Assembly: GCA_963771005.1 (NCBI GenBank)
Contig: CAVYRO010000002.1
Location: forward strand, 1,550,299-1,614,298
DNA: 64,000 nt
Direction: 5' to 3'
Origin: an uncultured Bacteroidales bacterium
GTDB lineage: Bacteria; Bacteroidota; Bacteroidia; Bacteroidales; GCA-2748055
The notes under the pieces were generated by a model. It saw only the letters and a program-made list of their open reading frames with translations, did no database searches and had not been told where the DNA came from. This document shows, one piece after another, positions 3,451 to 64,000 of the stretch (the first letter of the stretch is position 1; the number at the start of each line of letters is the position of its first letter). A program made the translations under genes and the position numbers.

Positions 3451-3532
3451 CGTTCGTAAGGTTAATTTATCGATAGAGATGATAAAAATATTCAATTAAT
3501 TTAAATTAATCACCCAAAACCTGCGTTTAATT

Positions 3533-3780
3533 CGGTTGTTTGAAATGGTTTGAGATGGTTTGATATGGTTTCAGGGAGTTTAACCACAGATTACACAGAT
3601 TATCACAGAAAAAGCTGTTCCAGATTGTTTGAAATGGTTTGAGGTTGTTTGAAATGGTTTCAGGTGGTTTCAGGTGGTTTCAACTCCATTCAACAAATCA
3701 ACAAGTCAACAAATCAACAAATCAACAAATTCTTCCGTGTTCCTCTTCCTCTTCACCAAATCACCAAATCACCAAATTTG
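3533..3780. repeat. composite microsatellite block (10-bp GTTTGARATG units, CACAGATTA units, 8-bp TCAACAAA units, 8-bp CACCAAAT units); inverted copy of 49938-50171
   Basis: The tandem units were read directly. The reverse complement of 3533-3610 matches 50038-50100 (ctgtgataatctgtgtaatctgtggttaaac..cctgaaacca). The reverse complement of 3730-3780 matches 49938-50000 (tttggtga...gaagaggaagaggaacac). Confidence 0.8.
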
Positions 3781-13791: not shown

Positions 13792-13794
13792 AGA

Positions 13795-13950
13795 ATTTGG
13801 TGATTTGGTGATTTGGTGATTTGGTGAGGGAGAAGAATTCTCAGAATGGATTGATTGATTGATTTGGTGATTTGGTGATTTGGTGATTTGGTGATTGAGA
13901 AGAACTCTCAGAATAGATTGAATGGTTGGTTGATTTGTTGATTGAGAATA
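13795..13950. repeat. microsatellite block (ATTTGGTG x n, GATT x n), same family as 3533-3780
   Basis: tttggtgatttggtgatttggtgatttggtga occurs twice, each followed by ..agaa(t/c)tctcagaat(g/a)gattga. Confidence 0.75.
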
Positions 13951-33514: not shown

Positions 33515-36419
33515 TTACTTTTTTCTCAGCCTCAGAGCATTCAGGATTACGGACACCGAACTGAAGCTCATTGCCGTGGCAGCGATAACCGGACTCAGCA
33601 AAAGTCCGAAAAACGGGTAAAGGATCCCTGCTGCAACAGGAACGCCGATGGAATTGTATATGAACGCGAAAAACAGGTTCTGCTTTATATTCTTCATCAC
33701 CTTAATGCTGAGATCTCTTGCCCGTACTATCCCGTTAAGATCTCCTTTAACGAGTGTGATCCCGGCGCTCTGCATGGCGATGTCGGACCCTGTTCCCATG
33801 GCAATGCCAATATTGGCCTGGGCAAGCGCCGGTGCATCATTGATCCCGTCTCCGGCCATGGCCACGATATGTCCCTGATCCTGCCATTCTTTAACCTTGT
33901 TGTATTTATCATCCGGCAGGCAGTCTGCTAGATACCCATCGAGGTTCAATTCAGTCGGCAACGGCTTTTGCAGTATACTCATTGTCACCGGTAAGCATAT
34001 AAACTTTCACGCCCATTTCCTGAAGCGCACTGATCGCCCCGGCTGAGGTCTTTTTGATGGTATCAGAAACGCTGACCATCCCTTCCACCCGTCTGCCGGC
34101 GACAAGAAACATCACCGTCTGGCCGGTCGATTGCCATTCTTCGGCAAGCTTTTCCTGGCTTTCGGAAAGAGAAGCCTTGAAATCATCGAGCAGGCGGAGA
34201 TTTCCAAGACCGATAGGCTCACCGTTGTACATGGCCTGCACGCCTTTGCCGGTAACTGATAAGAAATCCCGGACCTCGATAAGACCTGTTTTCTGTTCCT
34301 CTGCACCTTTTACGATGGCTTCCGCAACGGGATGATTGCTTTGCGCATCGATGGAAGCAGCGAGACGAAGAATGTCTTCATCCTGCAACTTCCCGAACGA
34401 TTTCCATGACTTCAATCGCGGTTTGCCTTCGGTAATCGTTCCGGTCTTATCGATGATCAGCAAATCCACCTTGTTCATCTCCTCGATGGTTCGGGCATCC
34501 TTCACCAGTATACCGGATTGTGCTCCCCGCCCTGTTCCTACCATTATCGACATAGGGGTAGCCAGTCCCAGTGCACAGGGACAGGCAATGATTAGTACAG
34601 ACACGGAATTGACAAACGCATAAACCAGGGCAGGCTCCGGCCCCCATATCGCCCATAGGGCAAAGGTTACTACAGCCACCGAAACCACGATTTGAACGAA
34701 ATATTTCGCCACCAGGTCGGCCAGTCTTTGGATAGGAGCCCTTGTCCGGCTGGCTTCATTCACCATTTCAATGATCCGTGCAAGCAGCGTATCACTGCCC
34801 ACTTTCCGGGCCTCCATTACGATGGAGGTATTCCCGTTGATGGTTCCCCCGGTTACGTCATCTCCTACCGATTTATCAGCCGGCACAGGCTCTCCTGTGA
34901 TCATACTTTCATCGACAGTAGCTTCACCCTCAAGGATCTTCCCGTCAACCGGGATCTTCTCACCGGGCCGGACTCTGAGACGGTCACCAACCACAACTTC
35001 TTCTAGAGGGATCTGTTCTTCATGGCCGTTACGAATGATCCGGGCCACCGGAGGTGCCAGGTTCAGAAGCGCCCGGATGGCTGAATTGGTTTTGCTGTGG
35101 GCTCGCAGCTCCATTACCTGGCCCATAAGAACCAGGGAAAGAATAACCGTCGACGCTTCAAAATACAAATGTACATTGCCGGCGGCATCCTTAAACTGCG
35201 CAGGAAACAAACCGGGAAAGATAAGGGCCAAAACGCTGAAAATAAATGCAGCACCTACACCGAGACTGATCAGGGTCCACATGTTTGGGGACCTTCTTCT
35301 GACAGAGCTGTAACCGCGTTTGAAAAACTGCCATCCCGAATAGAACACCACAGGGATGGACAAGAGAAATTCCAGCCAGCCCCATGCTCTTTCGGAAATA
35401 AAATTTTCGAGGTGAACTCCTTTGATCATACCAGACATAGCCACGAGAAAGACAGGTGCAGTAAAGATGAGAGCTACTTTGAATTTTCGCAGCATCTTTA
35501 TATAAGCCTTTTGTTCCTCATCGGTTTTCTGAACCTTTTCGGGAACCAGGTCCATACCGCATTTTGGGCAGGTACCGGGACCTTTTTGCCTGACCTCCGG
35601 ATGCATCGGACAGGTATAGATCAGGTTGCCGGCAGAACTCCTATTTTCCACTTTAAGGAGATCCATGCCGCATACCGGGCAGTCTCCCGGATGATCATAG
35701 GTTTTATCCCCTTCGCACCGCATCGGGCAATAATATTCTTCACCTGTCTGCCCGTTACCTGACTTTGCATGTTCTCCGTACCCCTGGCCATGCCCGTGAT
35801 GTTCCTGGTGATGAGAATGAGGATGTTCTTTATGACTATCCCGTTGCTCACCCTCCCTGACCAGGAACATGTTGCAAACCGGGCATCTCCCAGGTTCATC
35901 GTAGGTTTTGTCACCTTCACAATGCATAGGACAATAATACTTTTCACCGGAGTGTTCTATTTCCTTCTCTGGCTTTTCCACCTGATTGACATGCCCTTCC
36001 GTGTCAGCCGGATTATCCTCCGTTACTTTTACCAGGTGCATTCCACATACCGGACAATCACCGGGCTGGTCATAAATTTTGTCCCCTTCACAATGCATCG
36101 GGCAGATATACTCTCCGCCTGCTTGATGATCTTTCGTAAAGTCATGATTATCCTGCCGGGAAATGCTTTTCCCAATATGCTGTCCTTTGTGATCACCAGG
36201 ATCAAAACGGATGGAATAGCCGGTACGCTGAACGGCTGAAACCATACTTTTCCGGCTGACCTGATCCGGTTCATACCGGATCGAAGCGAGTTCACCGGTT
36301 AAGCTGACCGAAGCTTCCGCCACGCCTTCTATCGACAGAAGGGTTTCCTGTATTTTACGGGCGCAGGACTGACAACCCATGCCTTCCACAATGGCATTTT
36401 CAGAGATGTATTTTTTCAT
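33515..36419 (-). pseudogene. copA: copper-translocating P-type ATPase (P1B) with HMA plus four CPMH..PG.CP.CGM metal-binding repeats; one frameshift near 33963
   Basis: It has an N-terminal HMA domain ([11 protein letters not shown]) and four repeats (Y[IYT]CPM[HR](C/P)EGDK.YD.PG.CPVC[GN]M). P-type motifs are CPC ([12 protein letters not shown]), DKTGT and TGDN in the first ORF, and GDGINDAP in the second ORF. ..TAKAVAD* and [13 protein letters not shown].. join if one T is removed. Confidence 0.85.
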
Positions 36420-36948: not shown

Positions 36949-37194
36949 TAGTATCAGAAAGAACCCTTCGACTTCGCTCAGGGACCGGCGACTTCATTCA
37001 AGAGGGTGAACTTTTCGGATGGTGGTAAGGCAGGCCAAAGGCCCTTATGTATAAATCTGAAATTCAATGGTTTTCTTATGAAGGGCCTATTGCCTGCCTT
37101 ACCACCATCCGAAAAGTTCTTCGTTCATCGAATTGACCGGTCCCTGAGCGAAGTCGAAGGGTTGTCGGGTTTTCTTGCAAACACTAAGTATTAG
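36949..37194. mobile_element. MITE-like hairpin element, copy 1 (about 245 bp, long terminal inverted repeats plus an internal inverted repeat)
   Basis: The TIR cccttcgacttcgctcagggaccgg pairs with ccggtccctgagcgaagtcgaaggg. The internal IR cttttcggatggtggtaaggcaggc pairs with gcctgccttaccaccatccgaaaag. It is near-identical to 48511-48760. Confidence 0.65.
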
Positions 37195-37225
37195 TTTTTA
37201 TAACAAACTTTCGAGACAGCCTCTT

Positions 37226-48415: not shown

Positions 48416-48510
48416 AATCCTCAAACCTGAAGCAAACTTATTTCTATCTGTGTTGATCTGTGTAAATCCATGGTGAAACTCTAACCGGATATCTTCCTCA
48501 CTTAATTAGT

Positions 48511-48760
48511 GTCTGCAAGAAAACTCGACAACCCTTCGACTTCGCTCAGGGACCGGCGACTTCATTCAAGAGGGTGAACTTTTCGGATGGTGGTAAGGCA
48601 GGCAAAAGGCCCCTATGTATAAATTTAAAATTCAGTGACTTGCGCAAGAAGGGCCTTTTGCCTGCCTTACCACCATCCGAAAAGTTCTTCGTTCATCGAA
48701 TTGACCGGTCCCTGAGCGGAGCCGAAGGGTCATCGAGTTTTCTTTCTGATACTAATTAAG
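48511..48760. mobile_element. MITE-like hairpin element, copy 2 (250 bp, about 55-bp TIRs)
   Basis: The left end is cttaattagtgtctgcaagaaaactcgacaacccttcgacttcgctcagggaccgg. The reverse complement of the right end is cttaattagtatcagaaagaaaactcgatgacccttcggctccgctcagggaccgg. The internal sequence is collinear with copy 1. Confidence 0.7.
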
Positions 48761-48832
48761 ACTTTTTTAACATCCTCCCCTCCGCTTTCCCCTTAACTTA
48801 CAGAGATATGTATTGTTTATGAATAAAAAAGT

Positions 48833-49937: not shown

Positions 49938-50171
49938 AATTTGGTGATATGGTGATATGGTGATATGGTGATTTGGTGAAGTGGAAGAGGAAGAGGAACA
50001 CAGATTTGACGGATTTGTGCGGATAATCACGGAGCTAATCTGTGATAATCTGTGTAATCTGTGGTTAAACTTCCTGAAACCACTTCAAACCATTTCAAAC
50101 CACTTCAAACCATCTCAAACTATCTCAAACCACTTCAAACCATTTCAAACCACTTCAAACCATCTCAAACC
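49938..50171. repeat. composite microsatellite block, inverted copy of 3533-3780
   Basis: (TGGTGATA/T)n, gaagaggaagaggaacac, aatctgtg units and (AAACCAYYTC)n, in the mirror order of the 3.5-kb copy. Confidence 0.8.
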
Positions 50172-50184
50172 TTCCCCCGAAAAA

Positions 50185-51408
50185 TTACCTGCTTGCAAGC
50201 TCCCCCTCCACAACCTCATCCGTAGCATTATGATCCCTGTAATCGAAATACAGGTTAAGGAATGCCGGCACACTCACTGAAGCAGCTTTGCAGGGAGAAT
50301 TGGTCAGAAAAACGATGCCTACGTTTTCATCCTGGCAGAGGGCAATCTCCGACTTGTACCCGTCCACATATCCTGCATGATAGGCGACATTGCGTCCCTT
50401 ATAGCCGATGATCCGCCAACCGATAGCGTACTGTTTGGAATCGACATGATCCCAGTAACGCAGGTATGTCCAGGGAAGGGGTGTCCTGATCTGTGGCATA
50501 AGTACCGAATCGAGAACATCATGAAAGGTAACTTTATCAAGAATGGCACAAAGGAAATGAGCCATATCAGAAATACTTGCATTTACGCCGGCAGCAGGAA
50601 GGCAATTATAGTACCTGTCATTCAGCGGAAGGGATTTGTATCCTCCTCCTGACAAGTAATGCGGATAGGCTTTATCCGGGTTGTCTCTGAAGGATATGAA
50701 ACCTGTGGAAGCATTGACCATACCGAAAGGCTGAAATACCTTTTCACTGATCAGGGTTCCAAAATCTTCGGAAGTTTCAATTGAGCTGATGGTATCGAAG
50801 AGGCTGAACATGACATTCTGGTAGCTGTAAATCTCGCCCGGAGGAGCTGACAGTGTAACCCGGGAGAGGCTGTCCATGATCACATTAAAAGGAATATGTT
50901 CCTCAACCAGGTTGTCATAGGCATGAGGAACAAGTCCGGAGGTATGGCTGAGAAGATTCCGTATGGTCAGATGATTTGTATTTACTGAATCTTTAAGTCT
51001 GAACCCGGGCAGGACATCCTTGACACCCTTATTCAGATCGAGGATTCCCTGGCTTGAGAGGATCCCGGCAAGTACTCCGGTCACAGTTTTTGAAACCGAA
51101 CCCAGTCTGAAAATCGTACTGGCGTCAACCGGATCATTTTCGCCTTCTTTTCTCACTCCGTAGCATCTGAGGAACGCGATCTGGCCCTTATAAATGACGG
51201 CAACGGCAGCACCTACCGTTCCGGAAAGCTCTATTTCGCGAGTTATCAGGCTGTCGTATTGCAAAAGCACAGGCCGGATCTCAGCCAGGATCTTTGCAGG
51301 CATCACCATATCCGCAACCTTCATTTCTTTGGAGTATGGCTGAAGTTTCAGCGCTACAGATGCCAATCCCGTGAATATCAACAGGAAAAAAAAGTATCTT
51401 CGTTTCAT
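50185..51408 (-). CDS. serine hydrolase (beta-lactamase/PBP4*-like, class C fold)
   Basis: FRLGSVSKTVTG is the SxxK motif and YSYQN is the YxN motif. The signal peptide starts at MKRRYFFFLL. Confidence 0.8.
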   Translation of the reverse strand: MKRRYFFFLLIFTGLASVALKLQPYSKEMKVADMVMPAKILAEIRPVLLQYDSLITREIELSGTVGAAVAVIYKGQIAFLRCYGVRKEGENDPVDASTIFRLGSVSKTVTGVLAGILSSQGILDLNKGVKDVLPGFRLKDSVNTNHLTIRNLLSHTSGLVPHAYDNLVEEHIPFNVIMDSLSRVTLSAPPGEIYSYQNVMFSLFDTISSIETSEDFGTLISEKVFQPFGMVNASTGFISFRDNPDKAYPHYLSGGGYKSLPLNDRYYNCLPAAGVNASISDMAHFLCAILDKVTFHDVLDSVLMPQIRTPLPWTYLRYWDHVDSKQYAIGWRIIGYKGRNVAYHAGYVDGYKSEIALCQDENVGIVFLTNSPCKAASVSVPAFLNLYFDYRDHNATDEVVEGELASR

Positions 51409-52570: not shown

Positions 52571-52687
52571 GTGTAATTATATTTTTGGTTAACAAAATAT
52601 TCGATGCGAAGTTTCACAAGCGGTACTTTCAAGAGGTTTACATCGACCGGTTCAACGTCCGAAGCAGATCCGCTCCAGTGCAATTAC

Positions 52688-52924
52688 CTGGTGGCTGAAA
52701 AATTACAACCTGAGGCAGGTGCAGTATAAGGCGATGACCGTTTTTTGAGACTGATGCATGCAGTAGTTACCGCCTACGAAAGCGATGAAGAAGACTATAC
52801 TCTTCCGGGTGCTCCCCTGGATGTGGAAAATTATAAGACCAGGATACGCAAAGCCCGGGAAAGGGTAAAAGCCGGTTATTATACTATACAGGAGGATCTG
52901 GAAAAGGAGATGGAGCAATGGTAA
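52688..52924 (+). pseudogene. decayed antitoxin gene (paralog of 58646-58909) with an in-frame TAA at 52727
   Basis: ..AEKLQPEAGAV*GDDRFLRLMHAVVTAYESDEEDYTLPG...AGYYTIQEDLEKEMEQW aligns in register with ..ALKKELHSYIEKADERFLKMVHALAKSYEDEEDIVGY...SGNYITQEDLEKEIKNW. Confidence 0.45.
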
Positions 52925-53240
52925 AGAAAAATTACAAGGTCATCTGGGAAGATGACGCCAAAGCTTCATTACGCAGGATCTACAATTATATTAAAAAGAA
53001 AGAATCTGTTGATCAGGCGATAAAAGTACGAATGAAATACGCGATCTGGCCAAAAGTCTTGGATTTATGCCCCACAAATATATCAAAGATCCTTTCTTAA
53101 AAGATGAGCTTGGGGATATCCGTTTTAAAGTGATCTGGAGTTACAAAATCGTTTATGAAATCACATCTGATGCCGTCATTATCCTTGATATTTTCCACAC
53201 CAGTCGAGATCCAGGTAACCTGAAGCAAATAAAAAAATAA
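52918..53240 (+). pseudogene. RelE/ParE-family toxin, frameshifted near 53041 (paralog of 58903-59220)
   Basis: MVKKNYKVIWEDDAKASLRRIYNYIKKKESVDQAIKV is followed, in the next frame, by NEIRDLAKSLGFMPHKYIKDPFLKDELGDIRFKVIWSYKIVYEITSDAVIILDIFHTSRDP. It shares the same ATGGTAA overlap with the antitoxin as the intact copy. Confidence 0.6.
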
Positions 53241-53341
53241 GTCCAGTAACACTCCCCTCCTCCAACCCTGCTGCAGTAGTTTTTTGTCATGCCTTTGGCA
53301 GTTGCCTGTTTGCGCCGCCCGGCAGCCGGGACCCCGAATCA

Positions 53342-56300
53342 TTGAACGAACAGATTCAGTATTTTGAAATGGGTCGTTTAAGGCAGGTGGTTCGTGTTAA
53401 GGGCAGCCCTACAGGTGATGATATGATCATGCCGGTGGAATATGATGTATTTGGAAGACAAAGCAAAAACTATTTACCTGTTTCGTATACCTATATTAAC
53501 CCGGGAAGTTATCTGAATAATTATACTGCCGCTCTGGATAACCTTTACAATGGAGGATTCAATATACCGGATGCGGAGGGTTACTACTATAGTGAAACTC
53601 AGTTTGACGGATCTCCCCTGAACCGGGTTGTCGCCCAGTCATCCCCCGGGGCCTCCTGGTCAATGTCAACGGGACACACCGTCGAATATTCGTATTCCAC
53701 GAACCAGGCAAGCACGATCCGTTTATGGTCCATGGACGGGAGTACGGCTACTAGTAACGGATGTTACACCGAAGGTGAATTATACGTAAACACGGTTACC
53801 GACGAGAATGGGAACCCGTCCCGGGTCTATATTGATAAAAAAGGAAGATTGATCGCTAAAGATGACACTCTCTCTGTCAACTATAGAACCTATTACGTCT
53901 ACGACTATTACGGAAGCCTGCGTTATATATTCCCCCCAAAAATGGCAAAGGATTTTGGTACCAGCGGGACCCTCCAATATACTCCTTCCACAACGCTGGT
54001 GGTTGGACTGGCTTTCTACTATCAGTACGACGATATGGGACGGGTTGTAATCGCCCAGGAACCTGGAGCCGGACAGAAATACCTGGTTTATGACCACAGG
54101 GACCGGCTTGTGGCCACTCAAAACGAAGAGGAGAGAAATGACTCAAAATGGTATTGCATAAAGTATGATGCATTGAACCGGCCGGTGATCGAGGGAACTA
54201 TAAATTCCAGTTATAGCCGTGAATCTTTACAGGCTACAGTCGATGCATATAATTTCAGTGAAGATTTTGAGACACTGAATCCTTCACAGGTTAATACATC
54301 GCCAGACTACGGCTACAATGATATTTCCTTTCCCATGGAAATAGAGCCATTAAAGATCTACTATTATGATGATTATTATGATTTTGGAACAAATTACAAT
54401 TACAAGACCAATGAGATGGCCGCTAGCGGCGATAAGTCGTACAAGCTAAAAAATGCGTTGACTGCCACCCGAACAAAAGTTCTTGACGGATCTCTTCCGG
54501 TAACCTGGCTGATCTCGGTTTCTTACTTTGATAATTATGGACGGTTGATTCAAAATATCTCCAACAATCACCTGGGGGGGTATGATATTGTCACCTCGGA
54601 ATACAAGAACACCATCAATAATAACATCACCAGGATCAAGCAGGAACATGGGATAAGCGGAACCACGGTGGATCATACCCTCATGTACCGCTACACGTAT
54701 GATCACACCGGGGGCCGGTTACTGGAATCCTATCTGACCTTTGACCAGGAGGATGAGATCATGCTCTCGGCCTTAAAATACAACAAACTGGGTCAGGTTG
54801 ACGAGAAATACCTGCATGGAGACCTGTCCACCAACAAGGCCATCCAGAAACTCGATTATATTTACAACATACGGGGTTGGCTGAAAAAGATCAATGATGC
54901 CTCGCTGAGCACTCCTGGAGATGTTTTTGGTATGGAACTGCTCTATGATGATTATATCTCAACGCTCGGTTCAAGTGGTGACAAGCAGTACAACGGGAAT
55001 ATTACCGCCATGAAATGGAACACCACTTTGCAAGGCGCCGGACTGGAAGGGTATGAATTCCGGTACGATGGTCTGAACCGGCTAACTTCGGCTAATTACG
55101 GTTACGGGACAAGTTTATCAAATTCCGGCAACCGGTACGGAGTATGGGGTATCACTTATGATGAAAACGGAAATATCCTTACCCTGAAACGAAACTCTGC
55201 AGGATCGCTTATGGATGATCTCACCTATCAGTACGACTCCAGCCTGCCAAACCGTCTTAAATCCGTTGAAGACGACGGGGATGTTAATACGGGATTCAAA
55301 AACCTTTACTCGTCGACAACGGAATATACTTACGACGAAAATGGAAGTATGATACGTGACTATAATAAAGTCAGTGGTTCATCCTATGCCTTGATCTCCT
55401 ATAACCATCACTTTAACCTTCCGGTAAGCGTAACGGTGGACACTAAAACGTTGAGTTATTCCTACGATGCCGGTGGCAAAAAACTAAGATTTAACAACGG
55501 GGATAGTCAGAATGTCGATTATATGAATAACTTTGTTTATGAAGATGGTTCTTTGTCATATATATTAACTTCTGAAGGCAGGATCGTCTATAACTCCGGC
55601 TCGCTCTCCTGGCAGTATTTTCTGAAAGATCACCTGGGCAATGTCAGGGTGGTAATCAATGAAAACCAGGATATCGTTCAGGTGACCGATTATTACCCCT
55701 TTGGTCTTTCCCGGCCGGTTATCGGTGATGGCACCCAGAAATACCTCTACAACGGGAAAGAAATTCAGGAATATGCCGATTGGTACGACTATGGTGCCAG
55801 GATGTATGACCCGGCGCTGGGGAGGTGGCATGTTGCAGATCCGTTGGCGATTAATAGACATAACCTTTCATCTTATAATTATTGTCGCAACAATCCAATT
55901 TTATTTATTGATCCTTTTGGGCTTTCAGACACCACTTATTCACAAGGAGATATAACTAAAAAAAATTATAATTTGCCTGGAGTCGTTCATAAATATGAAT
56001 ATGCATGGCTTAATCGATTTCATGGTGCTGGTGGTCAAGGAAATCCATTTGATGAGGAATTCTGGAGACATTTAGAAGAAGAATGGAGAAGAAATGGACA
56101 AAAAGCTGGTAAAAAAGCGGACAGGGAAAGAGAAGCTGCCATACTTATGCAGAACTGGCAAGATTATAAACACAATTATAATCAGCTTTGGGATATGATC
56201 AATCAAATTCAGAACAATACTGCAAATGTTGCCACAAACGGAGGGGGTGGATATACAATTGATATGCAAAGAATAGCCGAATCACCTGATGGAACTGTAA

Positions 56301-56695
56301 GTTCATTTACAGCATATGGCCCGACTCCTTTACAACCTGTTAGTGGTTATATATTAGAGCCTGGTGGGCCATCAACAACAACTAGAGGTCAAGACAAGAG
56401 AATTCCTGCTGGGACTTACAATGTAGACCCTCTTAGTAGCACAAGTCATCCTAATGTTTACAGAGTTTCAAATGGGCAAGTACCTGCTGACAGGTATATT
56501 TTAATACATACGGGAAATTATCCTTCAAATACTTTAGGTTGTCTTTTACCGGGAAGCTCGTACAGTATGGTAAATGGTAATTATGCAGTATGGAATAGTG
56601 GAACGACCCTTAATTCCTTGCGTTCTTTACTTGGTGGTAATAGTGCAACATTAAATATTTCTGACATTCCGATTTTTAATTTTAATAACTGGTAA
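53342..56695 (+). CDS. Rhs/YD-repeat toxin (DUF6443-type) lacking its normal N-terminus; C-terminal YkuD/L,D-transpeptidase-like (DUF5675-like) domain
   Basis: IQYFEMGRLRQV...PVEYDVFGRQSKNYLP is a DUF6443-type start motif. Many YD repeats follow (YxYDxxGRL/I). The RHS core end is YYPFGL...[22 protein letters not shown]...NNPILFIDPFGL at 55910-55924. The 256-aa CT contains IPAGTYNV...RYILIHTGNYPSNTLGCLLPG. An in-frame stop lies 21 codons upstream of the TTG at 53342. Confidence 0.85.
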   Translation: MNEQIQYFEMGRLRQVVRVKGSPTGDDMIMPVEYDVFGRQSKNYLPVSYTYINPGSYLNNYTAALDNLYNGGFNIPDAEGYYYSETQFDGSPLNRVVAQSSPGASWSMSTGHTVEYSYSTNQASTIRLWSMDGSTATSNGCYTEGELYVNTVTDENGNPSRVYIDKKGRLIAKDDTLSVNYRTYYVYDYYGSLRYIFPPKMAKDFGTSGTLQYTPSTTLVVGLAFYYQYDDMGRVVIAQEPGAGQKYLVYDHRDRLVATQNEEERNDSKWYCIKYDALNRPVIEGTINSSYSRESLQATVDAYNFSEDFETLNPSQVNTSPDYGYNDISFPMEIEPLKIYYYDDYYDFGTNYNYKTNEMAASGDKSYKLKNALTATRTKVLDGSLPVTWLISVSYFDNYGRLIQNISNNHLGGYDIVTSEYKNTINNNITRIKQEHGISGTTVDHTLMYRYTYDHTGGRLLESYLTFDQEDEIMLSALKYNKLGQVDEKYLHGDLSTNKAIQKLDYIYNIRGWLKKINDASLSTPGDVFGMELLYDDYISTLGSSGDKQYNGNITAMKWNTTLQGAGLEGYEFRYDGLNRLTSANYGYGTSLSNSGNRYGVWGITYDENGNILTLKRNSAGSLMDDLTYQYDSSLPNRLKSVEDDGDVNTGFKNLYSSTTEYTYDENGSMIRDYNKVSGSSYALISYNHHFNLPVSVTVDTKTLSYSYDAGGKKLRFNNGDSQNVDYMNNFVYEDGSLSYILTSEGRIVYNSGSLSWQYFLKDHLGNVRVVINENQDIVQVTDYYPFGLSRPVIGDGTQKYLYNGKEIQEYADWYDYGARMYDPALGRWHVADPLAINRHNLSSYNYCRNNPILFIDPFGLSDTTYSQGDITKKNYNLPGVVHKYEYAWLNRFHGAGGQGNPFDEEFWRHLEEEWRRNGQKAGKKADREREAAILMQNWQDYKHNYNQLWDMINQIQNNTANVATNGGGGYTIDMQRIAESPDGTVSSFTAYGPTPLQPVSGYILEPGGPSTTTRGQDKRIPAGTYNVDPLSSTSHPNVYRVSNGQVPADRYILIHTGNYPSNTLGCLLPGSSYSMVNGNYAVWNSGTTLNSLRSLLGGNSATLNISDIPIFNFNNW

Positions 56696-56706
56696 ACTGA
56701 ATTAAA

Positions 56707-57497
56707 ATGAAAAAAATATTATTTATAAGTTTAGTTTCAATATCATTTATACTAAACGGACAAAACTTATAGAAGAGAGTCTCTCAAAAGCAGATGGCGA
56801 AAAAGTTGAATTATCTGAGTTTAATAAAACAAATTACAATAAGGTTTGGATGAAAAATCAAGATGATGTTATAGGTTATATAGGAGATAATTATCAACGA
56901 ATATATATTCACTTAATATCTGTGATTAAAAATCAATTAGTAGATAATGAATACTTTGTATATGGGAAATCAAAGGTTAAAAGCAATGTATGTGATTTTC
57001 AAGGAAAGTTTACAATTACAGATGTGCGTGAATTTAACAAAACAGAGAGGGAAGCTTTATACAAAGAAGCATTAAAACATGGTGACCAAGAAGCTGCCAA
57101 TAAATTAGGGAAAGCACGAGGTTTTGTCTTAGCAGAATACTTTTTATTGGAAAATCCAGAACAAAAAGGGAGTGGCCTTTTTAAAGGAGTTGTAAAATCT
57201 TACTTCTATGTTGATGAAAAAGGCGAATTGTTTTTTGATGACCTAGATTTGGGTTCTAGTGATACTTATTGCAATAATCAATTTGTTGGTGTTTGGCAGA
57301 GTTATTATACTAGGGCGCAAAAACCATGTAATTGGGGGGCATATAGGATACCCAACTCAGGAGATTTAGATATTGGAGCCGGTGAGTTTTCTCCAAACAC
57401 GAAATACTTGGAGAAAGGATGGGATACTTATTATCTGGCATATAATAAATCGGAAAGTGAAGCCCGAAAAGAAGAAAAACTTGAATGGTGGAAATGA
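56707..57497 (+). pseudogene. candidate immunity protein for Rhs-CT1, exported (signal peptide), split by a 1-nt deletion in the A-run at 56761-56766
   Basis: MKKILFISLVSISFILNGQN* is followed in the -1 frame by KLIEESLSKADGEKVELSEFNKTNYNKVWMKNQDD.... It lies immediately downstream of the toxin stop. Confidence 0.45.
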
Positions 57498-57501
57498 TAC
57501 A

Positions 57502-57528
57502 GAAAAGCCCGAGCAATCGGGCTTTTTC
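57502..57528. terminator. bidirectional Rho-independent terminator
   Basis: gaaaagcccgagcaatcgggcttttt has a 6-bp GC stem flanked by an A-run and a T-run. It sits between convergent genes. Confidence 0.6.
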
Positions 57529-57529
57529 T

Positions 57530-57800
57530 TTATCTATTCTTCCATAACTCAGGGTCTCGGTTTGTATGCCATACGGCTGAAACAATTATGGTTTTATTTT
57601 TTTCGTCAATTGTAAAGTGAACCATAAATGGGAACAGGTTTAAAACAGCAGTTCTCACGCTGTTGTAACGGACATTTGAAGCTTTTGGGTTTAGCCTGAT
57701 AAAATGGACTTTTTCATGGACTTCTGCAGTAAATCTTTTACCAAGTCCTTTTTGTTGTTTGTTATACCACAGGGCAGCTTCCCGAATATCTTCTTTTACA
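57530..57800 (-). pseudogene. ParE/RelE-like toxin gene, 5' end displaced by the IS66 remnant; no cognate antitoxin
   Basis: ..TVKEDIREAALWYNKQQKGLGKRFTAEVHEKVHFIRLNPKASNVRYNSVRTAVLNLFPFMVHFTIDEKNKTIIVSAVWHTNRDP is a ParE pattern. Codons upstream of T41 are encoded by IS sequence. Confidence 0.5.
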
Positions 57801-57872
57801 GTAAGCCTTCGGCCATCTGCATCTTGATTTGATTTGTAATACCGTTTAGCTTTGCCCCCAAAGCATGAATTT

Positions 57873-58169
57873 ATGAAAAAGGAGCAAAGAGAACAACAGC
57901 GGGAGAAGATGTTTTCTCTCATTGAAAAATGGCAGCAAAGCGATCAACCCCAGAAAGACTTTTGCCAGGAACATGGAATTAAGCTTGCCACATTTTACTA
58001 TTGGCAGAAAAAACTCCGAAATCGTAACCATGAAAATCACTCGGGTTTTATACCCATGGAAATATCCTCGTCTGATTCCAGAATAGTCGAGATCCGATAC
58101 CCTAACGGAGTGATCGTTCAGTTGCCAGGACTTGACCTTAGACTCCTGAAGCAACTGGTCCATCTTTAA
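57873..58169 (+). CDS. IS66-family accessory protein TnpA (orf1)-like
   Basis: MKKEQREQQREKMFSLIEKWQQSDQPQKDFCQEHGIKLATFYYWQKKLR is typical of IS66 orf1. Confidence 0.6.
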   Translation: MKKEQREQQREKMFSLIEKWQQSDQPQKDFCQEHGIKLATFYYWQKKLRNRNHENHSGFIPMEISSSDSRIVEIRYPNGVIVQLPGLDLRLLKQLVHL

Positions 58170-58184
58170 ATGTAGCTTTTTCGT

Positions 58185-58457
58185 ATGTTTACCCTTACCT
58201 CATCCTACCGGTATTATTTTTATGCCTGTGCGACGGATATGCGAAAAGGCTTTGACGGATTATGTGGGCTGGTGCACCTAGAGCTGGGGCGCAGACCTGT
58301 AACCGGTGAAGTATTCGTCTTTGTAAACCGTCAGCGTGATAAGATCACCAATGTAGAGCCTTTTGCCTGGTTAAAAAAGGTTCTTACCCTGATCCCTGAT
58401 TACTCAATACAGAAACTGGAGGATCTGCTTCCGGGAAACCTCATTCTATCTGAATAG
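58185..58457 (+). pseudogene. IS66 TnpB (orf2) N-terminus fused to the C-terminal tail of the IS66 transposase (internal deletion)
   Basis: YRYYFYACATDMRKGFDGLCGLV...GEVFVFVNRQRDKI is TnpB-like. It is followed directly by TNVEPFAWLKKVLTLIPDYSIQKLEDLLPGN, a transposase C-terminus. Confidence 0.6.
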
Positions 58458-58645: not shown

Positions 58646-58909
58646 ATGTTACAGGAAATCATGAACACAGCAGCATTAAAAAAAGAGCTTCACAGCTATA
58701 TTGAGAAAGCGGATGAAAGGTTCCTGAAAATGGTTCATGCATTAGCTAAGAGTTATGAGGATGAAGAAGATATTGTTGGTTATGAAGCCGATGGTAGCCC
58801 AATAACAAAGGAAGCCCTTATAAAAGAAGCAAGAGAAGCTTCTGCACAAGTTAAGTCCGGGAATTACATCACCCAGGAAGACCTGGAAAAAGAGATAAAA
58901 AATTGGTAA
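58646..58909 (+). CDS. antitoxin of the RelE/ParE module (intact copy)
   Basis: 87 aa and acidic. It overlaps the toxin start (ATGGTAA-type overlap) and is a paralog of 52688-52924. Confidence 0.55.
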   Translation: MLQEIMNTAALKKELHSYIEKADERFLKMVHALAKSYEDEEDIVGYEADGSPITKEALIKEAREASAQVKSGNYITQEDLEKEIKNW

Positions 58910-59220
58910 GGAAAAAACTTCCCGTTCGATGGTCCCCAAAAGCTAAGCAGAGGCTTGATAATATCTACGACTATATTGCTAAAGACTCAGTAAGTGCGGC
59001 CAGATATGTTAAAAAGTCTCTGGTTCAATTAGGAGGAAGTCTGGGACACTTCCCGGAAAAATACTCCAGAGAAGAATACCTGGCTGATGAACCGAAAAAC
59101 TACCGGTCGGTATCCAAGTGGCGATACAAGATTATTTATGAGGTAACTGACGAGTATGTGAATATCATTACCCTCTTTAATACCAGTCAACATCCTTCCA
59201 AAATAAAAAGAGACAAATAA
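58903..59220 (+). CDS. RelE/ParE-family toxin (intact copy)
   Basis: WSPKAKQRLDNIYDYIAKDS...YRSVSKWRYKIIYEVTDEYVNIITLFNTSQHP is a ParE/RelE pattern. Confidence 0.7.
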   Translation: MVRKKLPVRWSPKAKQRLDNIYDYIAKDSVSAARYVKKSLVQLGGSLGHFPEKYSREEYLADEPKNYRSVSKWRYKIIYEVTDEYVNIITLFNTSQHPSKIKRDK

Positions 59221-59254
59221 ACAATCCCCAGGCCTCCCCACCTCCAACCCTTCT

Positions 59255-59331
59255 GCAGCAGTTTTTTGTCCTGCCTTTTGCAGTTGCCGATTGCGCCGCG
59301 CATGGCAAAAGGCACGCCAAAAAACTGCTGC
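59255..59331. other. long imperfect hairpin conserved after both TA modules (only the left arm is present at 53256-53318)
   Basis: gcagcagttttttg pairs with ccaaaaaactgctgc. Inside it, tgccttttgc pairs with gcaaaaggca. Confidence 0.55.
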
Positions 59332-59696
59332 CCCGGGCAACGGCACATAATGTGTCCGTATATGCAACCCTCCGCTAAAAATAAGCTCCTACTTCCAACC
59401 GATATTTTTTCTTTTAACTGAAAACCCTCCCTGTAACGATGGGGCTGCACATACGGGAACATTATGTACCATTGCCACACCCGCCCCCACGCACGCCGAC
59501 CCTGCGCAGGCGGCACATTGCCAGGCCCCGCAAGGCCATACCCGCAGGGACCTAGAGCCTGTCAAAGAGCCGCCTGCCGGCCGGAAGACCCGCAAGCAGC
59601 ACCGGCAAAAGCAAGCCATCGCGCTAATGCCCTCCCCGGATTGCTTTTACCGGAGCTGCCGCGGAGAAATTACCTTCGAACCTGGATTAATCGCTT

Positions 59697-59909
59697 CATT
59701 TTAACCACTTAGAGCAAAGGTAAAGCCACCGGCCATACCCGCGCAAGGTCAAGCCCGTTGGGTTTTGGAGAAAAAATTTTATGTCGGTTTAACCGGGGAT
59801 AATCCAGGAAACGAAGATCCCTGATGCTAACGAAACCTGTAAAAATTTTTTCACCAAAAACCTTGCCTGCCCCCGCTGGCTTTGGAGGTTGCCTAAGTGG
59901 TTAAAAATG
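59697..59909. promoter_or_regulatory. inverted-repeat-flanked 180-bp segment (candidate invertible promoter or closing helix of a structured RNA)
   Basis: The left IR is cattttaaccacttagagcaa (59697-59717). The right IR, reverse-complemented, is catttttaaccacttaggcaa (59889-59909). The core 12-mer is perfect. A TACCTTTG (TAnnTTTG) box lies on the minus strand at 59715-59722, just inside the left IR. Confidence 0.3.
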
Positions 59910-60046: not shown

Positions 60047-61047
60047 ATGGGTTGCCTGAAACTTGCACGTAACGAAAAAAATGAACCTGTTTTGAGGTGC
60101 GTCTGGAAATCTTCCGGATGTTCAAAAATGGGCGTAAATTGGTATGATTACGGGGCCCGGATGTATGACCCGGCGCTGGGGAGGTGGCATGTCGCGGATC
60201 CATTGGCATTAAATGGTCATAGCCTGTCACCTTATAATTATTGCTTTAACAATCCGATCAATATGATTGATCTCTTGGACTGTGGCCTGGAGGTGGGAAT
60301 AACCGCCGTCATCCAACACTGGGATATAGGGGCTGTCATGGTGGCAAAAGTCGGCTTGGTGTCTTAGTTGATGGCGTTGGTGATTTTTTTAGTAAAGTGG
60401 GTAATACCATCAGTAGTAGTTTAGGTGGAGAAACGGATGGTGAATTTGGTTGGGGCAATATGGGATCTGAATTAATTGGTGGAGGATGGGCAGAACAACA
60501 ATTAGATCAAGCACTTTTATCAGCCCATTCGGAAGGGGAGAAAGAGGGTATAGCTGAAGATGCTCGAAGAACGGTTGAAACTCTAACTCGCAATGTGGGA
60601 GTTTATTATTATAAAAGGGATGAATTAAATAATCTGTTTCAGGGAATTGAAGATAATGCCAGTTCGGGAGGGGCTGGAGGAGACTTATCAAGTATGGGAG
60701 ATAATCCGCCAGACCACCCAGAATATAAAACGCCTAAAGGTGGAGATAGAAAAGTTAGAAATCCAAATGGAAAGGGGTCTGGTTGGATTGATAATAAAGG
60801 ACGAGTTTGGGTGCCAACTGACCACAAAGGAACACATGCTCCACATTGGGATAGGGAACTACCTGGCGGAGGGCACGAAAATGTATATCCATATATGAAT
60901 CCAGGTTTTAGTATTACTCCTGAGGATGTCTTAAGAGGATTAGTGATCGTAGGAGGTGCAGCAATAATTATTTTTGATATAGTAACGATACCCTCTGGGG
61001 AAGGTATGATTGGCGTTGAAATGATAAGAAGAGCTGTTGCTCCTTAA
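60047..61047 (+). pseudogene. orphan Rhs C-terminal cassette 2: core-end remnant plus toxin domain with G-W-x-D..W-x-P..H-x-P-H-W-D motif; 1-nt deletion near 60272
   Basis: MGCLKL...[45 protein letters not shown] is followed in the next frame by (P)LGLWPGGG...KGSGWIDNKGRVWVPTDHKGTHAPHWDRELPGGGHENVYP. A 30-nt run is identical to the main rhs gene (ggatgtatgacccggcgctggggaggtggcatgt). Confidence 0.6.
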
Positions 61048-61057
61048 ATTATGTGAT

Positions 61058-61633
61058 ATGATGAAATTTATAGAAAATTTTGAAGAATTGCTCCCCTATA
61101 ATAGGGAGCATTATATTGATTTTCTAGATGATGATTTTGATGCAGAGACAAAATGGTGTGCTGTTTCGCTTCAAATAAACAGTGAGAATGGAGAAACTAG
61201 TTTGTCCAAGTTTGTTGATGTTTTTGGATTGATTTTTAAGAATGTAGTATTAAAGCTTGACAACGGAGTTTCTTGGATTATAAACCATGATGATAAAGAC
61301 ATGAACTGGTTTCTTAATGACAAGGATAATTTAGAAGCTTTAAGAACCGTATTTAAAATAAATAATGTTCAAGATACTTTTAAGGGCTCGTTGATTCTTG
61401 AGAAAGAAAATCTATTAGAATTAGCACAGGATTTAATTTCATACCCATATGTTTTATCCTATAAGAATTTAGATATTTCACATAGTAAATTACAGTTTAT
61501 AATAAAAATAACCAGTCATTTGACTATTGATTTGTTGAGTACGGATAAAGAAGTTCTAAGAAAAATTGTTAAAGAAAACAGTTCTAGCAAAATCATAATA
61601 AAAGAATACAGAGGTACTTCACTTTGGACTTAG
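61058..61633 (+). CDS. candidate cytoplasmic immunity protein for cassette 2
   Basis: It begins 11 nt after the toxin stop, has no signal peptide and is acidic. A terminator follows it. Confidence 0.45.
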   Translation: MMKFIENFEELLPYNREHYIDFLDDDFDAETKWCAVSLQINSENGETSLSKFVDVFGLIFKNVVLKLDNGVSWIINHDDKDMNWFLNDKDNLEALRTVFKINNVQDTFKGSLILEKENLLELAQDLISYPYVLSYKNLDISHSKLQFIIKITSHLTIDLLSTDKEVLRKIVKENSSSKIIIKEYRGTSLWT

Positions 61634-61660
61634 ACTTAATTATTAAAGTGCGATATAACA

Positions 61661-61688
61661 GAAAAGCCCGATTGCTCGGGCTTTTTTT
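61661..61688. terminator. Rho-independent terminator (the same hairpin as 57502-57528 with the stem-loop flipped)
   Basis: gaaaagcccgattgctcgggcttttttt. Confidence 0.6.
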
Positions 61689-61694
61689 CATTCT

Positions 61695-61796
61695 TTAAAA
61701 TTTAGCTTTCCCATCCAATAAGTCTTTCATCCTTTTTTTAGTCAGCATAGAATTAATAATCTTAATCAGTGCATTTTTCTCATCTTCATCGAGTTG
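61695..61796 (-). pseudogene. 3' remnant of a minus-strand gene (..LDEDEKNALIKIINSMLTKKRMKDLLDGKAKF*), cut by cassette 3
   Basis: The reading frame is open only up to the breakpoint at about 61797. The tail resembles C-termini of XRE-type regulators. Confidence 0.3.
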
Positions 61797-62891
61797 GATA
61801 ATAAGGTCAGCGGCTCATCCTATGCTTCGATCTCCTATAATCCTCATTTTAACCTTCCGGTAAGCGTAACGGTGGATACCAAAACGTTGAGTTATTCCTA
61901 CGATGCCGGTGGGAAAAAGCTAAGATTTAACAACGGGGATAGTCAGAATGTCGATTATATTAATAACTTTGTTTATGAAGATGGTTCTTTGTCATATATA
62001 TTAACTTCTGAAGGCAGGATCGTCTATAACTCCGGATCGCTCTCCTGGCAATATTTTCTGAAAGACCACCTGGGCAATGTCAGGGTAGTAATCAATGAAA
62101 ACCAGGATATCGTTCAGGTGACGGATTATTATCCCTTTGGTCTTTCCCGGCCGGTTATCGGTGATGGCACCCAGAAATATCTTTATAACGGGAAGGAAGT
62201 GCAGGAGTATGCGGACTGGTATGATTATGGGAAGAGGTTTTATGATCCCAGTTTGGGCAGATGGCACGTGGTTGATCCGCTGAGTGAAAAATCCAGAAGA
62301 TGGTCGACTTACCAATATAGCTATAATAATCCTATTCGGTTTATTGATCCAGATGGTATGCTGCCTGGTGATCCAAATGATCCAATTACTTCATTATTTT
62401 ACTCAATTGTTGATTATTTTCATTTAAAACACGATCAAAATGAAGGAAATATTAGATCAGTTGGACAAACTGTCATGAATATGAAACCTACTGCAAACGA
62501 TTCAAAGGGAGAGGACATTGTTTCAATTAAAGTAGGAGGCAGTACAGGTAATAAAAATATCGTTCAAACAGGAGCTCAAGTAAAAGTTGCATTAAATGAG
62601 GATAAAGGTATAGTCACAACTGGTGAGATTCATGTTATTGCAGCAAGAACTTATGGAGCCTCTGCTGAAGCTTCGGTTTATGAGGAAAATGATGCTACAA
62701 CTCCTACCATTGAAACGGAAGTTGATGCTGGACCTACTACATCACCTTCCACACCTGAATTACCTGTTAAAGTTAATCCTAAAGCTCTTTTAAGAACTAT
62801 TAATGGAGCTATTGAAACTTTACAAAACTATTTTAATCAAAAAACAGATGAAATCACACATCCAGAGAAATATATTCAGAAAGAATGGTAA
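61794..62891 (+). CDS. orphan Rhs C-terminal cassette 3: about 380 nt near-identical to the main rhs core, plus a distinct CT toxin of unknown type
   Basis: 61800-62180 is near-identical to 55366-55745 (NKVSGSSYA.ISYN.HFNLPVSVTVDTKTLSYSYDAGGKKLRFNNGDSQNVDY...). The sequences then diverge: WYDYGKRFYDPSLGRWHVVDPL...NNPIRFIDPDGM plus 170 novel residues. Confidence 0.65.
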   Translation: MDNKVSGSSYASISYNPHFNLPVSVTVDTKTLSYSYDAGGKKLRFNNGDSQNVDYINNFVYEDGSLSYILTSEGRIVYNSGSLSWQYFLKDHLGNVRVVINENQDIVQVTDYYPFGLSRPVIGDGTQKYLYNGKEVQEYADWYDYGKRFYDPSLGRWHVVDPLSEKSRRWSTYQYSYNNPIRFIDPDGMLPGDPNDPITSLFYSIVDYFHLKHDQNEGNIRSVGQTVMNMKPTANDSKGEDIVSIKVGGSTGNKNIVQTGAQVKVALNEDKGIVTTGEIHVIAARTYGASAEASVYEENDATTPTIETEVDAGPTTSPSTPELPVKVNPKALLRTINGAIETLQNYFNQKTDEITHPEKYIQKEW

Positions 62892-62940
62892 TTACTTTTA
62901 TTACTTTATTCAAATAATATACTGGTATACCTTTGTTATA

Positions 62941-63393
62941 TTGGGAATTGTAATTATTTCTGATATAATAAGTTTTATTAACATGTTCAGTAAGAGTGAT
63001 TTTATTACATATTTATTTTTTCTCTTATTAATTTTAGCTGAAATCGTATTTATAATTGCAACAATTTGGCTAATTAATTATCAATTTTCCAAATATGCTT
63101 TCTATATAATATTAATTTTTTGGACTGCTCAAATCTTATTTTTTGGAATTAGGGGGAACGTATATAGTTTTACATCGGGAATTGAATTAGCTTTATATAT
63201 TAGATTTAATCCGCACTTTGATTTAGGTACTTTCTTTAATTTTTGGAGCAAAGAATTTAGAATTGAGCTTAATGCCAAAAGTCAGCGAGAATACTTTGGA
63301 ATAAATATTTTACCCTTAATACTGTCCATATCATTAGTATTTTTAAGAAAGAAATTAAAGAAGGAGTACTATTTACCTAATAAACAGCTTTAA
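62941..63393 (+). CDS. candidate polytopic membrane immunity protein for cassette 3
   Basis: It has four to five hydrophobic helices (ILGIVIISDIISFI, YLFFLLLILAEIVFIIATIWLI, AFYIILIFWTAQILFFGI, INILPLILSISLVFL). The start is uncertain: TTG at 62941, ATG at 62983, or the upstream ORF limit at 62803. Confidence 0.45.
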   Translation: MGIVIISDIISFINMFSKSDFITYLFFLLLILAEIVFIIATIWLINYQFSKYAFYIILIFWTAQILFFGIRGNVYSFTSGIELALYIRFNPHFDLGTFFNFWSKEFRIELNAKSQREYFGINILPLILSISLVFLRKKLKKEYYLPNKQL

Positions 63394-63398
63394 TTCAA

Positions 63399-64000
63399 TA
63401 TGCTTGAACTAGAGGCAAACTGGTACGATTACGGGAATAGATTCTACGATCCTGCTTTAGCCCGTTGGCATACACAAGATTTAATGGCTGAATTCTCTTA
63501 TGATCGACCACCATACAATTATGTTTCTAATAATCCAATTATTGCCTTCGATCCGGATGGGAACTTTGAAACTAAACTAGGAGCCTGGCTGTATAAAGTA
63601 TTTCACGGAGGTGTGGCAATTCGTCAAGATGAAGGAGGTGAATACTACGTTTACGAGCAAACTGAAAATGAAGAAGGCGCTGATATTACATTAAAGAAAA
63701 CATTTGACAGAAAAGGTAGAAGTGAAGGAAGAGATTTAAAACAAGAAGCTGCAGTAGAAGCCTATGAAACCCAATATAATTGGTCAATGGCTTTGGATGA
63801 GATGGGCGTCGAGTATTCATATACAAATGATCTAAGCGAAGCTAGGCAAAGTACAATTCAGGTAGCAGCTAATGTGTTATTACCAAATGCTTTAAAGACA
63901 ACAACGGCCGTTACAAATACAGCGAAAACTAGTATTAAAAGTGTAGACGATTTGCTCAGAGCTGCAGGGAAACTTGAAAAAGTAAGAGGTGCTGAGCAAG
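63399..64000 (+). CDS. orphan Rhs C-terminal cassette 4 (partial, runs off the window)
   Basis: MLELEANWYDYGNRFYDPALARWHTQDLMAEFSYDRPPYNYVSNNPIIAFDPDGN is followed by a novel CT. It is absent from the ORF track because no stop occurs before 64000. Confidence 0.6.

Follow-up and report, generated by a model that had tools for sequence, protein, structure and literature searches.

Can an Rhs gene that has lost its beginning still arm a bacterium, and what would its toxin act on? The question is raised by a 64,000-nt stretch of the genome of an uncultured Bacteroidales bacterium, which we call the window. It contains an open reading frame (ORF; 53342-56695) that a preliminary description, made from the letters alone, had read as an Rhs protein without an N-terminus and with an L,D-transpeptidase-like toxin tip. 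We conclude, with a probability of about 70%, that this ORF is the beheaded main gene of an Rhs polymorphic-toxin locus, most likely a silent, decaying remnant. Its tip belongs to the family DUF5675, and we regard an L,D-peptidase-like chemistry as rather probable.

The main gene has lost its 5' end

The Rhs gene in the window is without the N-terminus of its family: it has neither a signal peptide nor the beginning of DUF6443. To establish this we compared it with 80 metagenomic DUF6443-Rhs loci, in 69 of which the start of the ORF is not cut by the end of the contig. All 69 homologues reach at least 45 residues past residue 1 of the window protein (median 103), and a hydrophobic, signal-peptide-like N-terminus is present in 61 of them. 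None (0/69) begins at the IQYF motif, which in the window protein occupies residues 5-12 (IQYFEMGR). When the first 300 residues were compared with databases, five homologues proved to be longer at the N-terminus by 50-75 residues, signal peptide included. The Pfam comparison agrees: the first 22 positions of the DUF6443 profile are absent and the match starts at position 23. Hence the loss of the N-terminus, as first described, is borne out, and the window protein does not have a complete DUF6443 domain preceded by a signal peptide.

A full-length counterpart with the same tip is found in a Saccharicrinis metagenome-assembled genome (MAG), where the product of a 1422-aa ORF (L008:5634-9902) begins with a signal peptide, continues with DUF6443 and the Rhs shell and ends in DUF5675; the immunity gene comes next. 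Searches of GTDB genomes and JGI metagenomes brought up no close relative of the window Rhs protein.

The remainder of the protein is present. The YD-repeat shell is complete, and so is the Rhs-associated core, which covers positions 1-76 of the 76 in the NCBIfam profile TIGR03696. The core ends in DPFGL (residues 857-861), the predicted self-cleavage site. Because DPFGL ends at residue 861, the tip comprises residues 862-1117, or 256 aa. The protein accordingly shows what marks Rhs (YD-repeat) polymorphic toxins, a core that closes with a PxxxxDPxGL motif and a variable tip behind it. The ORF (1117 aa), the IQYF and DPFGL motifs, the size of the tip and the motif IPAGTYNV of the preliminary description were all confirmed.

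The nearest in-frame stop upstream of the TTG start is a TAA at 53216-53218. It lies 42 codons away, not 21 as initially stated; the accompanying statement that no ATG intervenes is correct and extends to GTG and TTG. A 67-nt repeat (53252-53318) follows the ParE stop codon, and weaker similarity to its second copy runs on to about 53340, the start of the Rhs frame. Since the Rhs frame begins where the similarity to the sequence behind the toxin-antitoxin module ends, this point looks like a rearrangement junction. A 26-nt core of the repeat occurs twice in the window, against 0 expected in shuffles, and the repeat is missing from every locus retrieved for comparison. An Rfam scan of 52-64 kb, which included the repeat and the GC-rich region 59300-59900, gave nothing above threshold. 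The comparison shows that the 5' end (45 to about 100 codons) was swapped by rearrangement for sequence that follows a ParE toxin-antitoxin module.

Two further ideas about the missing part were rejected. A shufflon was dismissed after tblastn with five full-length N-termini found no other DUF6443 N-terminus within the window, which also has no suitable inverted repeats. A cryptic leader hidden in the 42 open codons was discarded as well, the same sequence being found at 59234 without an Rhs gene behind it. What comes after the second repeat copy is 600 nt of non-coding, GC-rich (57%) DNA, 59300-59900.

A conserved partner gene is absent

In the Saccharicrinis locus the Rhs gene is preceded by a gene for a signal-peptide protein of about 1010 aa (L008:2675-5704). 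We surveyed the upstream regions of this locus and of L040-L119. Of the 57 loci with sufficient upstream sequence, 52 have a homologue of this gene ahead of the Rhs gene and in the same orientation, and no match to it was found anywhere in the 64-kb window. The presence of this partner is an empirical feature of these loci rather than a published definition, and the window locus does not share it.

Apart from a weak RHS_repeat match at its C-terminal end, the partner protein has no Pfam or PDB relative. This protein of about 1000 aa may resemble the N-termini of TcB and SpvB. Together, the partner gene and the DUF6443-Rhs gene may form a split-shell or dedicated delivery operon. The literature searched does not mention DUF6443, and the two-gene arrangement appears to be unpublished. 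Farther upstream, 22 of the 57 loci encode a 472-aa protein and 8 of the 57 a small T2SS-F-like protein.

The immunity gene is disrupted

An immunity homologue is present downstream of the window Rhs gene, yet a deletion of 22 nt parts its signal peptide from its body. DNA alignment with L004, L005, L006 and L008 places the deletion between 56766 and 56767, right after GACAAAAC. It is a clean deletion, not a homopolymer slip. Because of it, the signal peptide is out of frame with the body of the immunity protein, and a short piece ending in a stop codon (MKKILFISLVSISFILNGQNL) is stranded.

The family itself is large. We found 373 homologues at E ≤1e-3, each of about 270 aa, the nearest of them in Sunxiuqinia and Saccharicrinis MAGs. 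The immunity protein has no Pfam family match and no detectable relative among PDB sequences. We retrieved 116 homologues with an initial Met; 108 of them have a hydrophobic N-terminus, and the family is therefore predicted to be exported. The adjacent immunity candidate with a signal peptide that had been described initially is thus right for the family and wrong for an intact gene at this locus. Since the window gene is disrupted, the signal peptide is evidence about the family and not about a working gene here.

The system in the window is most likely silent. Signal peptide and partner gene are missing, the TTG is not preceded by any canonical start, the locus lacks a Bacteroidota-type promoter motif of its own, and the immunity protein is uncoupled from its signal peptide. 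The sole nearby Bacteroidota-type -7 motif, TAnnTTTG, lies at 52580, upstream of the toxin-antitoxin module. Signs of decay surround the gene: the 22-nt deletion, a frameshift in ParE, a frame change in the first orphan cassette and a remnant of an IS66 element.

The tip carries a DUF5675 domain

The tip was expected to be DUF5675-like with a His...Gly-Cys arrangement, and this expectation held. Pfam matches DUF5675 (PF18925) to residues 976-1096 with E 5e-19 in one search and E 1e-20 in a second, at 68.7-74 bits against a gathering cut-off of 26.7. IPAGTYNV corresponds to residues 1021-1028 and RYILIHTGNYPSNTLGCLLPG to residues 1051-1071. The latter contains the candidate catalytic residues His1056 (56507-56509) and Cys1067 (56540-56542). 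In an alignment of 52 DUF5675 sequences both belong to a set of invariant residues (R, T, E, Y, H, G, C, G), and their context in the family reads ILIHxGN...GCLLPG.

An AlphaFold2 (AF2) model of residues 962-1117 has a pLDDT of 91.5 and a pTM of 0.86. In this model the His would follow strand 92-94 and the Cys would precede strand 107-110. The first 100 residues of the tip are predicted as helices (19-33, 44-60 and 64-100) at pLDDT 52-75. The closest DUF5675 relatives do not share this helical linker; DNA similarity to L001 and L002 begins at 56227.

Foldseek against the PDB returned Pgp2 of Campylobacter jejuni (6xj6) as top match in both runs, with probabilities of 0.80 and 0.89 and a TM-score of 0.48. 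Bd1075 of Bdellovibrio (7o21) was also among the matches and the rest were noise; the top 50 contained no other YkuD structure. We take Pgp2 and Bd1075 to be YkuD-fold L,D-carboxypeptidases that trim peptidoglycan tetrapeptides. Among the viral models of BFVD, Foldseek found phage DUF5675 proteins (E 1e-9 to 1e-6) and one protein named L,D-carboxypeptidase/transpeptidase. A phmmer search of the tip against PDB sequences gave noise only.

At the level of motifs, [YF]-[IL]-L-I-H-x-G...G-C-L of DUF5675 is colinear with the motifs of DpaA and Tlde1, and when hhalign aligns the family with a Tlde1 domain, (I/L)PxGxY and (F/I)LIHxGxY...GC fall in register. A 2026 preprint (bioRxiv 10.64898/2026.04.11.717860) independently terms DUF5675 'C82-like', apparently on the basis of structure comparison.

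Co-occurrence of the putative toxin domain and the immunity gene

In its behaviour the DUF5675 domain is a mobile module. L001 and L002, two contigs from metagenomes, match the window only over 56227-56745, with 95% identity. A Sunxiuqinia MAG matches over 56235-57499 with 79% identity. DUF5675 lies directly upstream of an immunity homologue in at least eight loci (L003/L004, L005, L006, L007, L008, L029, L031 and L123), L003 and L004 being two fetches of one Sunxiuqinia MAG contig. Two of these are from Campylobacter concisus (L029:9253-10564 and L031:9154-10564), where the gene ahead of the immunity homologue encodes a DUF5675 protein that is 210-243 aa long and has no Rhs repeats. Bacteroidota and Campylobacterota are among the several bacterial phyla with such a pair. 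DUF5675 itself is also found in phages, with related genes in phages of Campylobacter, Helicobacter and Vibrio.

The immunity family is also linked to another toxin. In an Ignavibacteriota MAG (L032:6689-10573), an immunity homologue (30% identity, E 3e-25) directly follows an Rhs gene whose tip matches the Pfam family Tlde1_dom (E 5e-11, above the cut-off); this tip served as positive control for the PF10908 search. That one immunity family is common to DUF5675 and Tlde1-domain toxins is an independent hint of a peptidoglycan-stem target. Distant members of the family stand alone or follow GH19 genes. In several Bacteroidota genomes (L125:4895-6777, L126:936-2818, L014:3716-5549 and L020:8885-10666) the gene immediately before the homologue is a GH19 gene and the surroundings are of a housekeeping kind.

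DUF5675 is often found as the C-terminal tip of long proteins: of the best 150 among its 1041 representative clusters, about 20 are longer than 900 aa. Eight long DUF5675 proteins scanned with Pfam include three with full-length DUF6443, one classical Rhs protein and one with DUF4280 (P0290), presumably a PAAR-like domain. Intact DUF6443-Rhs-DUF5675 proteins are available in public data (L008, P0196, P0225 and P0254).

Comparison with known systems

The preliminary description knew of no YkuD-fold effector on a Bacteroidota Rhs scaffold. This did not survive comparison with the literature and with the intact public proteins. Zhang et al. (2012, PMC3482391) catalogued L,D-peptidase toxin domains with RHS repeats as 'Tox-LD-peptidase' and named Bacteroidetes as one of the phyla. 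Members of that class carry a C-terminal L,D-peptidase toxin on an RHS-repeat protein, as the window gene probably does, and have linked immunity genes; they are delivered by T2SS (Sec), T6SS or TcdB/TcaC-type systems in several phyla (PMC3482391). However, the definition of the class rests on YkuD enzymes of the classical fold (PDB 1ZAT; residues H, S, C), and its immunity families are Imm16 and Imm57, whereas the window combines a DUF5675 tip with an immunity protein outside Pfam. Given the class of 2012 and the frequent DUF5675 tips, the DUF5675-Rhs fusion is neither unique nor unprecedented. In contrast, a role of DUF5675 in toxicity between bacteria, together with a dedicated immunity family, appears to be unpublished: in the literature searched only three papers mention DUF5675, and none of them describes such a toxin.

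An experimentally characterised parallel is Tlde1a, a T6SS effector of Salmonella, which was shown to be an L,D-carboxypeptidase/transpeptidase with an altered L,D-transpeptidase fold and a catalytic Cys (PMC9638812). Tlde1 is antibacterial, acts in the periplasm on peptidoglycan stems and is countered by a periplasmic immunity protein; the DUF5675 tip would probably act similarly. Both share the colinear motifs and, through the Ignavibacteriota locus, an immunity family. Tlde1 is small and is delivered on its own as T6SS cargo, whereas the window tip crowns a DUF6443 Rhs protein of the Sec type. At no threshold does the window tip match Tlde1_dom (PF10908), and none of 52 relatives does.

For the predicted domain, no PDB fold matches other than Pgp2 and Bd1075 are sensible, and these two are also the best. 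They differ from it in sequence and structure (9-15% identity, TM-score 0.38-0.48, rmsd 5.9-8.4 Å) and in role, being housekeeping cell-shape enzymes with an extra C-terminal domain and not toxins. Phage DUF5675 proteins such as LysPd160 belong to the same Pfam family with the same predicted fold, and are proposed to be 'C82-like' peptidoglycan peptidases (bioRxiv 10.64898/2026.04.11.717860). These are stand-alone proteins of about 145 aa or parts of large virion proteins, without an immunity gene.

In its layout the locus resembles the rhs loci of Enterobacteria, where a main gene is followed by orphan cassettes of core fragment, toxin and immunity gene that share core sequence for recombination. 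It differs in the lost 5' end of the main gene and in the toxin-antitoxin modules and IS66 remnant interspersed. Moreover, its scaffold is of the Bacteroidota DUF6443 type with a signal peptide, not linked to PAAR or VgrG.

Weighing the explanations

For the tip, the L,D-peptidase idea is moderately supported overall. Peptidoglycan-directed periplasmic activity is the best reading because of the Pgp2 fold match, the exported immunity family and the Tlde1-Rhs pairing. Several results pull the other way. The Foldseek E-values for Pgp2 (0.07-0.17) are not significant, so that the link to YkuD is weak. The DUF5675 family profile (HMMER) had no match in the PDB. With hhalign, DUF5675 alignments of 48 and 177 sequences reached a probability of at most 0.4% against E. 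coli LdtA-E and DpaA, and of at most 1.4% against one Tlde1 domain. A Pfam search of 52 DUF5675 members at E up to 10 contained no YkuD or Tlde1 match, and the literature searched holds no biochemical work on any DUF5675 protein. The likeness to YkuD enzymes that was originally proposed therefore stands, weakly, for the fold, and fails for the profiles: the suggested structure comparison does lead to Pgp2, and the profile comparison to DUF5675 but not to YkuD or Tlde1. Such a missing sequence-level link and a borderline fold match would also fit a Cys/His enzyme whose target in the periplasm or envelope is a different one, for instance lipoprotein-peptidoglycan links as with DpaA, or a non-enzymatic binder. 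The distant immunity homologues beside GH19 genes or alone add to this, as pairing by itself leaves the chemistry unfixed. We nevertheless regard such an activity as rather unlikely. The sole meaningful PDB matches are peptidoglycan L,D-carboxypeptidases, the invariant His and Cys lie in a context colinear with the DpaA and Tlde1 motifs, the immunity family is predicted to be exported, and phage homologues are proposed as lysins in the preprint cited above.

That the gene is a decaying remnant also has its difficulties. The open frame of 1117 aa and the excess of synonymous over non-synonymous differences in the toxin domain (14 against 7, relative to L001 at 95% identity) imply either a recent truncation or a gene that still serves a purpose. 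Transcription could reach it by read-through from the promoter region of the toxin-antitoxin module, and beyond the visible 64 kb the genome could contain an intact paralogue or the partner genes. One may go further and suppose that the gene is functional as it is, starting at the TTG or at a non-canonical codon upstream and delivering its product without Sec, through another secretion machine or lysis. Rhs core and toxin are complete, the differences from L001 resemble purifying selection, the frame stays open for 42 codons upstream of the TTG and a possible promoter motif precedes the toxin-antitoxin module. Yet this architecture was found in none of the 69 homologues, the first 22 DUF6443 profile positions and the conserved partner gene are absent, and the open stretch upstream is a repeat that recurs at 59234-59299 with no Rhs gene behind it. 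Furthermore, immunity without a coupled signal peptide would be dangerous if the toxin reached the periplasm of the producer. A functional gene is therefore improbable. Improbable too, in our view, is that the truncation and the frame breaks are artefacts of a long-read metagenome assembly, namely a mis-join at the repeat or indel errors. It is true that several frame changes fall within 8 kb and one in a housekeeping ATPase, that a repeat is located at the junction and that the nearest relatives are MAGs. Some single-base frame changes could indeed be sequencing errors, given that the housekeeping P-type ATPase is split too. However, while some frameshifts may arise in this way, the 22-nt deletion and the missing N-terminus do not. 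The repeat is only 67 nt long, 90% identical and outside the Rhs coding sequence; alone, it cannot join a toxin-antitoxin module to Rhs codon ~60. The lesion in the immunity gene is clean, the IS66 remnant is the product of an internal deletion and no partner gene occurs anywhere in the window. A silent remnant of an Rhs main gene hence remains our preferred reading.

Genomic neighbourhood

The features of the locus are listed in Table 1. Their layout is that of a classical main gene with orphan cassettes, here three Rhs C-terminal ones, except that the main gene is headless. Over its 5' 300 nt, orphan cassette 2 matches 55362-55661 of the main gene with 94% identity, and a 135-nt stretch with 80% identity is also common to the main gene core and the orphan cassettes.

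Table 1. Coordinates of the Rhs gene, its neighbours and repeats in the window
Feature	Position	Strand	Basis
N-terminally truncated DUF6443-type Rhs gene, 1117 aa, TTG start	53342-56695	+	ORF list, Pfam, NCBIfam, homologue comparison
Partial DUF6443 domain, residues 2-120, profile positions 23-137 of 137	53345-53701	+	Pfam E 8e-30
Rhs-associated core TIGR03696, residues 784-861, ending in DPFGL (55910-55924)	55691-55924	+	NCBIfam E 1.6e-18
Helical linker/pre-toxin segment of tip, residues 862-961	55925-56224	+	AF2 model, DNA similarity
DUF5675 toxin domain (putative), residues 962-1117	56225-56692	+	Pfam E 1e-20, conservation, AF2, Foldseek
Stranded signal-peptide piece of immunity gene, then stop	56707-56772	+	Three-frame translation; matches N-termini of P0059-P0065
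Immunity gene body, different frame, first ATG 56850	56766-57497	+	Homologues, protein and DNA alignment
GC-rich hairpin then T-run, terminator-like; similar one at 61655-61696 after next immunity gene	57492-57533	.	Inverted-repeat pair
67-nt repeat after ParE stop codon; second copy 59234-59299	53252-53318	.	blastn 90% identity, alignment
Antitoxin-like ORF; C-terminal sequence resembles the 87-aa paralogue 58646-58909, shorter than it	52745-52924	+	ORF list, translations
ParE-like toxin gene, frameshift-split into 52918-53100 and 53067-53240	52918-53240	+	Pfam ParE_toxin (second half), three-frame translation
Orphan Rhs cassette 1: core remnant and Ntox37 toxin, frame change near 60290	60134-61047	+	tblastn with L008 Rhs; Pfam Ntox37 E 8e-11
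Putative immunity gene of orphan cassette 1	61037-61633	+	Position only; no Pfam match
Orphan Rhs cassette 2	61794-62891	+	Repeat family; TIGR03696 E 6e-18
Hydrophobic, membrane-protein-like ORF, putative immunity gene of orphan cassette 2	62803-63393	+	Translation; no Pfam match
Orphan Rhs cassette 3, runs past window end, WYDYGNRFYDPALARWH...NNPIIAFDPDG	63397-64000	+	tblastn, translation
Tandem-repeat arrays (10-nt and 8-nt), intergenic	3526-3700, 50047-50186, 13786-13919, 49938-50004		

The frame change in the ParE-like gene upstream of the Rhs gene lies near 53040, and an intact paralogue is found at 58903-59220. A third ParE-like gene, on the minus strand at 57530-57922, adjoins the IS66 remnant. 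In the latter (within 57530-58457), an internal deletion has fused the N-terminus of TnpB to the last ~30 residues of the TnpC transposase.

Farther away, a heavy-metal P-type ATPase gene (33515-36419, minus strand) is split into two overlapping ORFs that divide its hydrolase domain, by either a frameshift or a sequencing error. The window also contains intergenic arrays of the 10-nt tandem repeat AAACCAYTTC and of its complement, 46 kb apart in inverted orientation, and intergenic arrays of the 8-nt repeat GATTTGGT. A repeat of about 240 nt (36962-37199 and 48530-48767, 89% identical) has internal inverted arms (48501-48563 and 48698-48760) and looks like a miniature mobile element.

Implications

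We propose how an intact relative would work. It would be exported by its Sec signal peptide, with the YD shell enclosing the tip. The tip would be released after DPFGL and delivered into the periplasm of a neighbouring cell. There, the DUF5675 domain would act as a Cys/His enzyme with a remote YkuD/L,D-peptidase-like fold and cut or remodel peptidoglycan stem peptides, in a manner resembling Tlde1 or the L,D-carboxypeptidase Pgp2. The producer would be guarded by the exported immunity protein of about 270 aa encoded just downstream. The copy in the window may still donate its tip by recombination, along with the three orphan cassettes downstream.

The locus itself is ordinary, a decaying Rhs toxin island of a kind common in Bacteroidota genomes. 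Its value is that of a pointer: to the DUF5675 toxin module, to an exported immunity family without Pfam entry and to the two-gene DUF6443-Rhs arrangement. We tentatively suggest, as a possibility that is on balance doubtful, that DUF5675 and the exported family of about 270 aa form a widespread cell-wall toxin/immunity pair, and that the immunity family may broadly inhibit peptidoglycan-active enzymes. If this is true, one immunity fold would neutralise at least two sequence-unrelated families of L,D-peptidase-like toxins.

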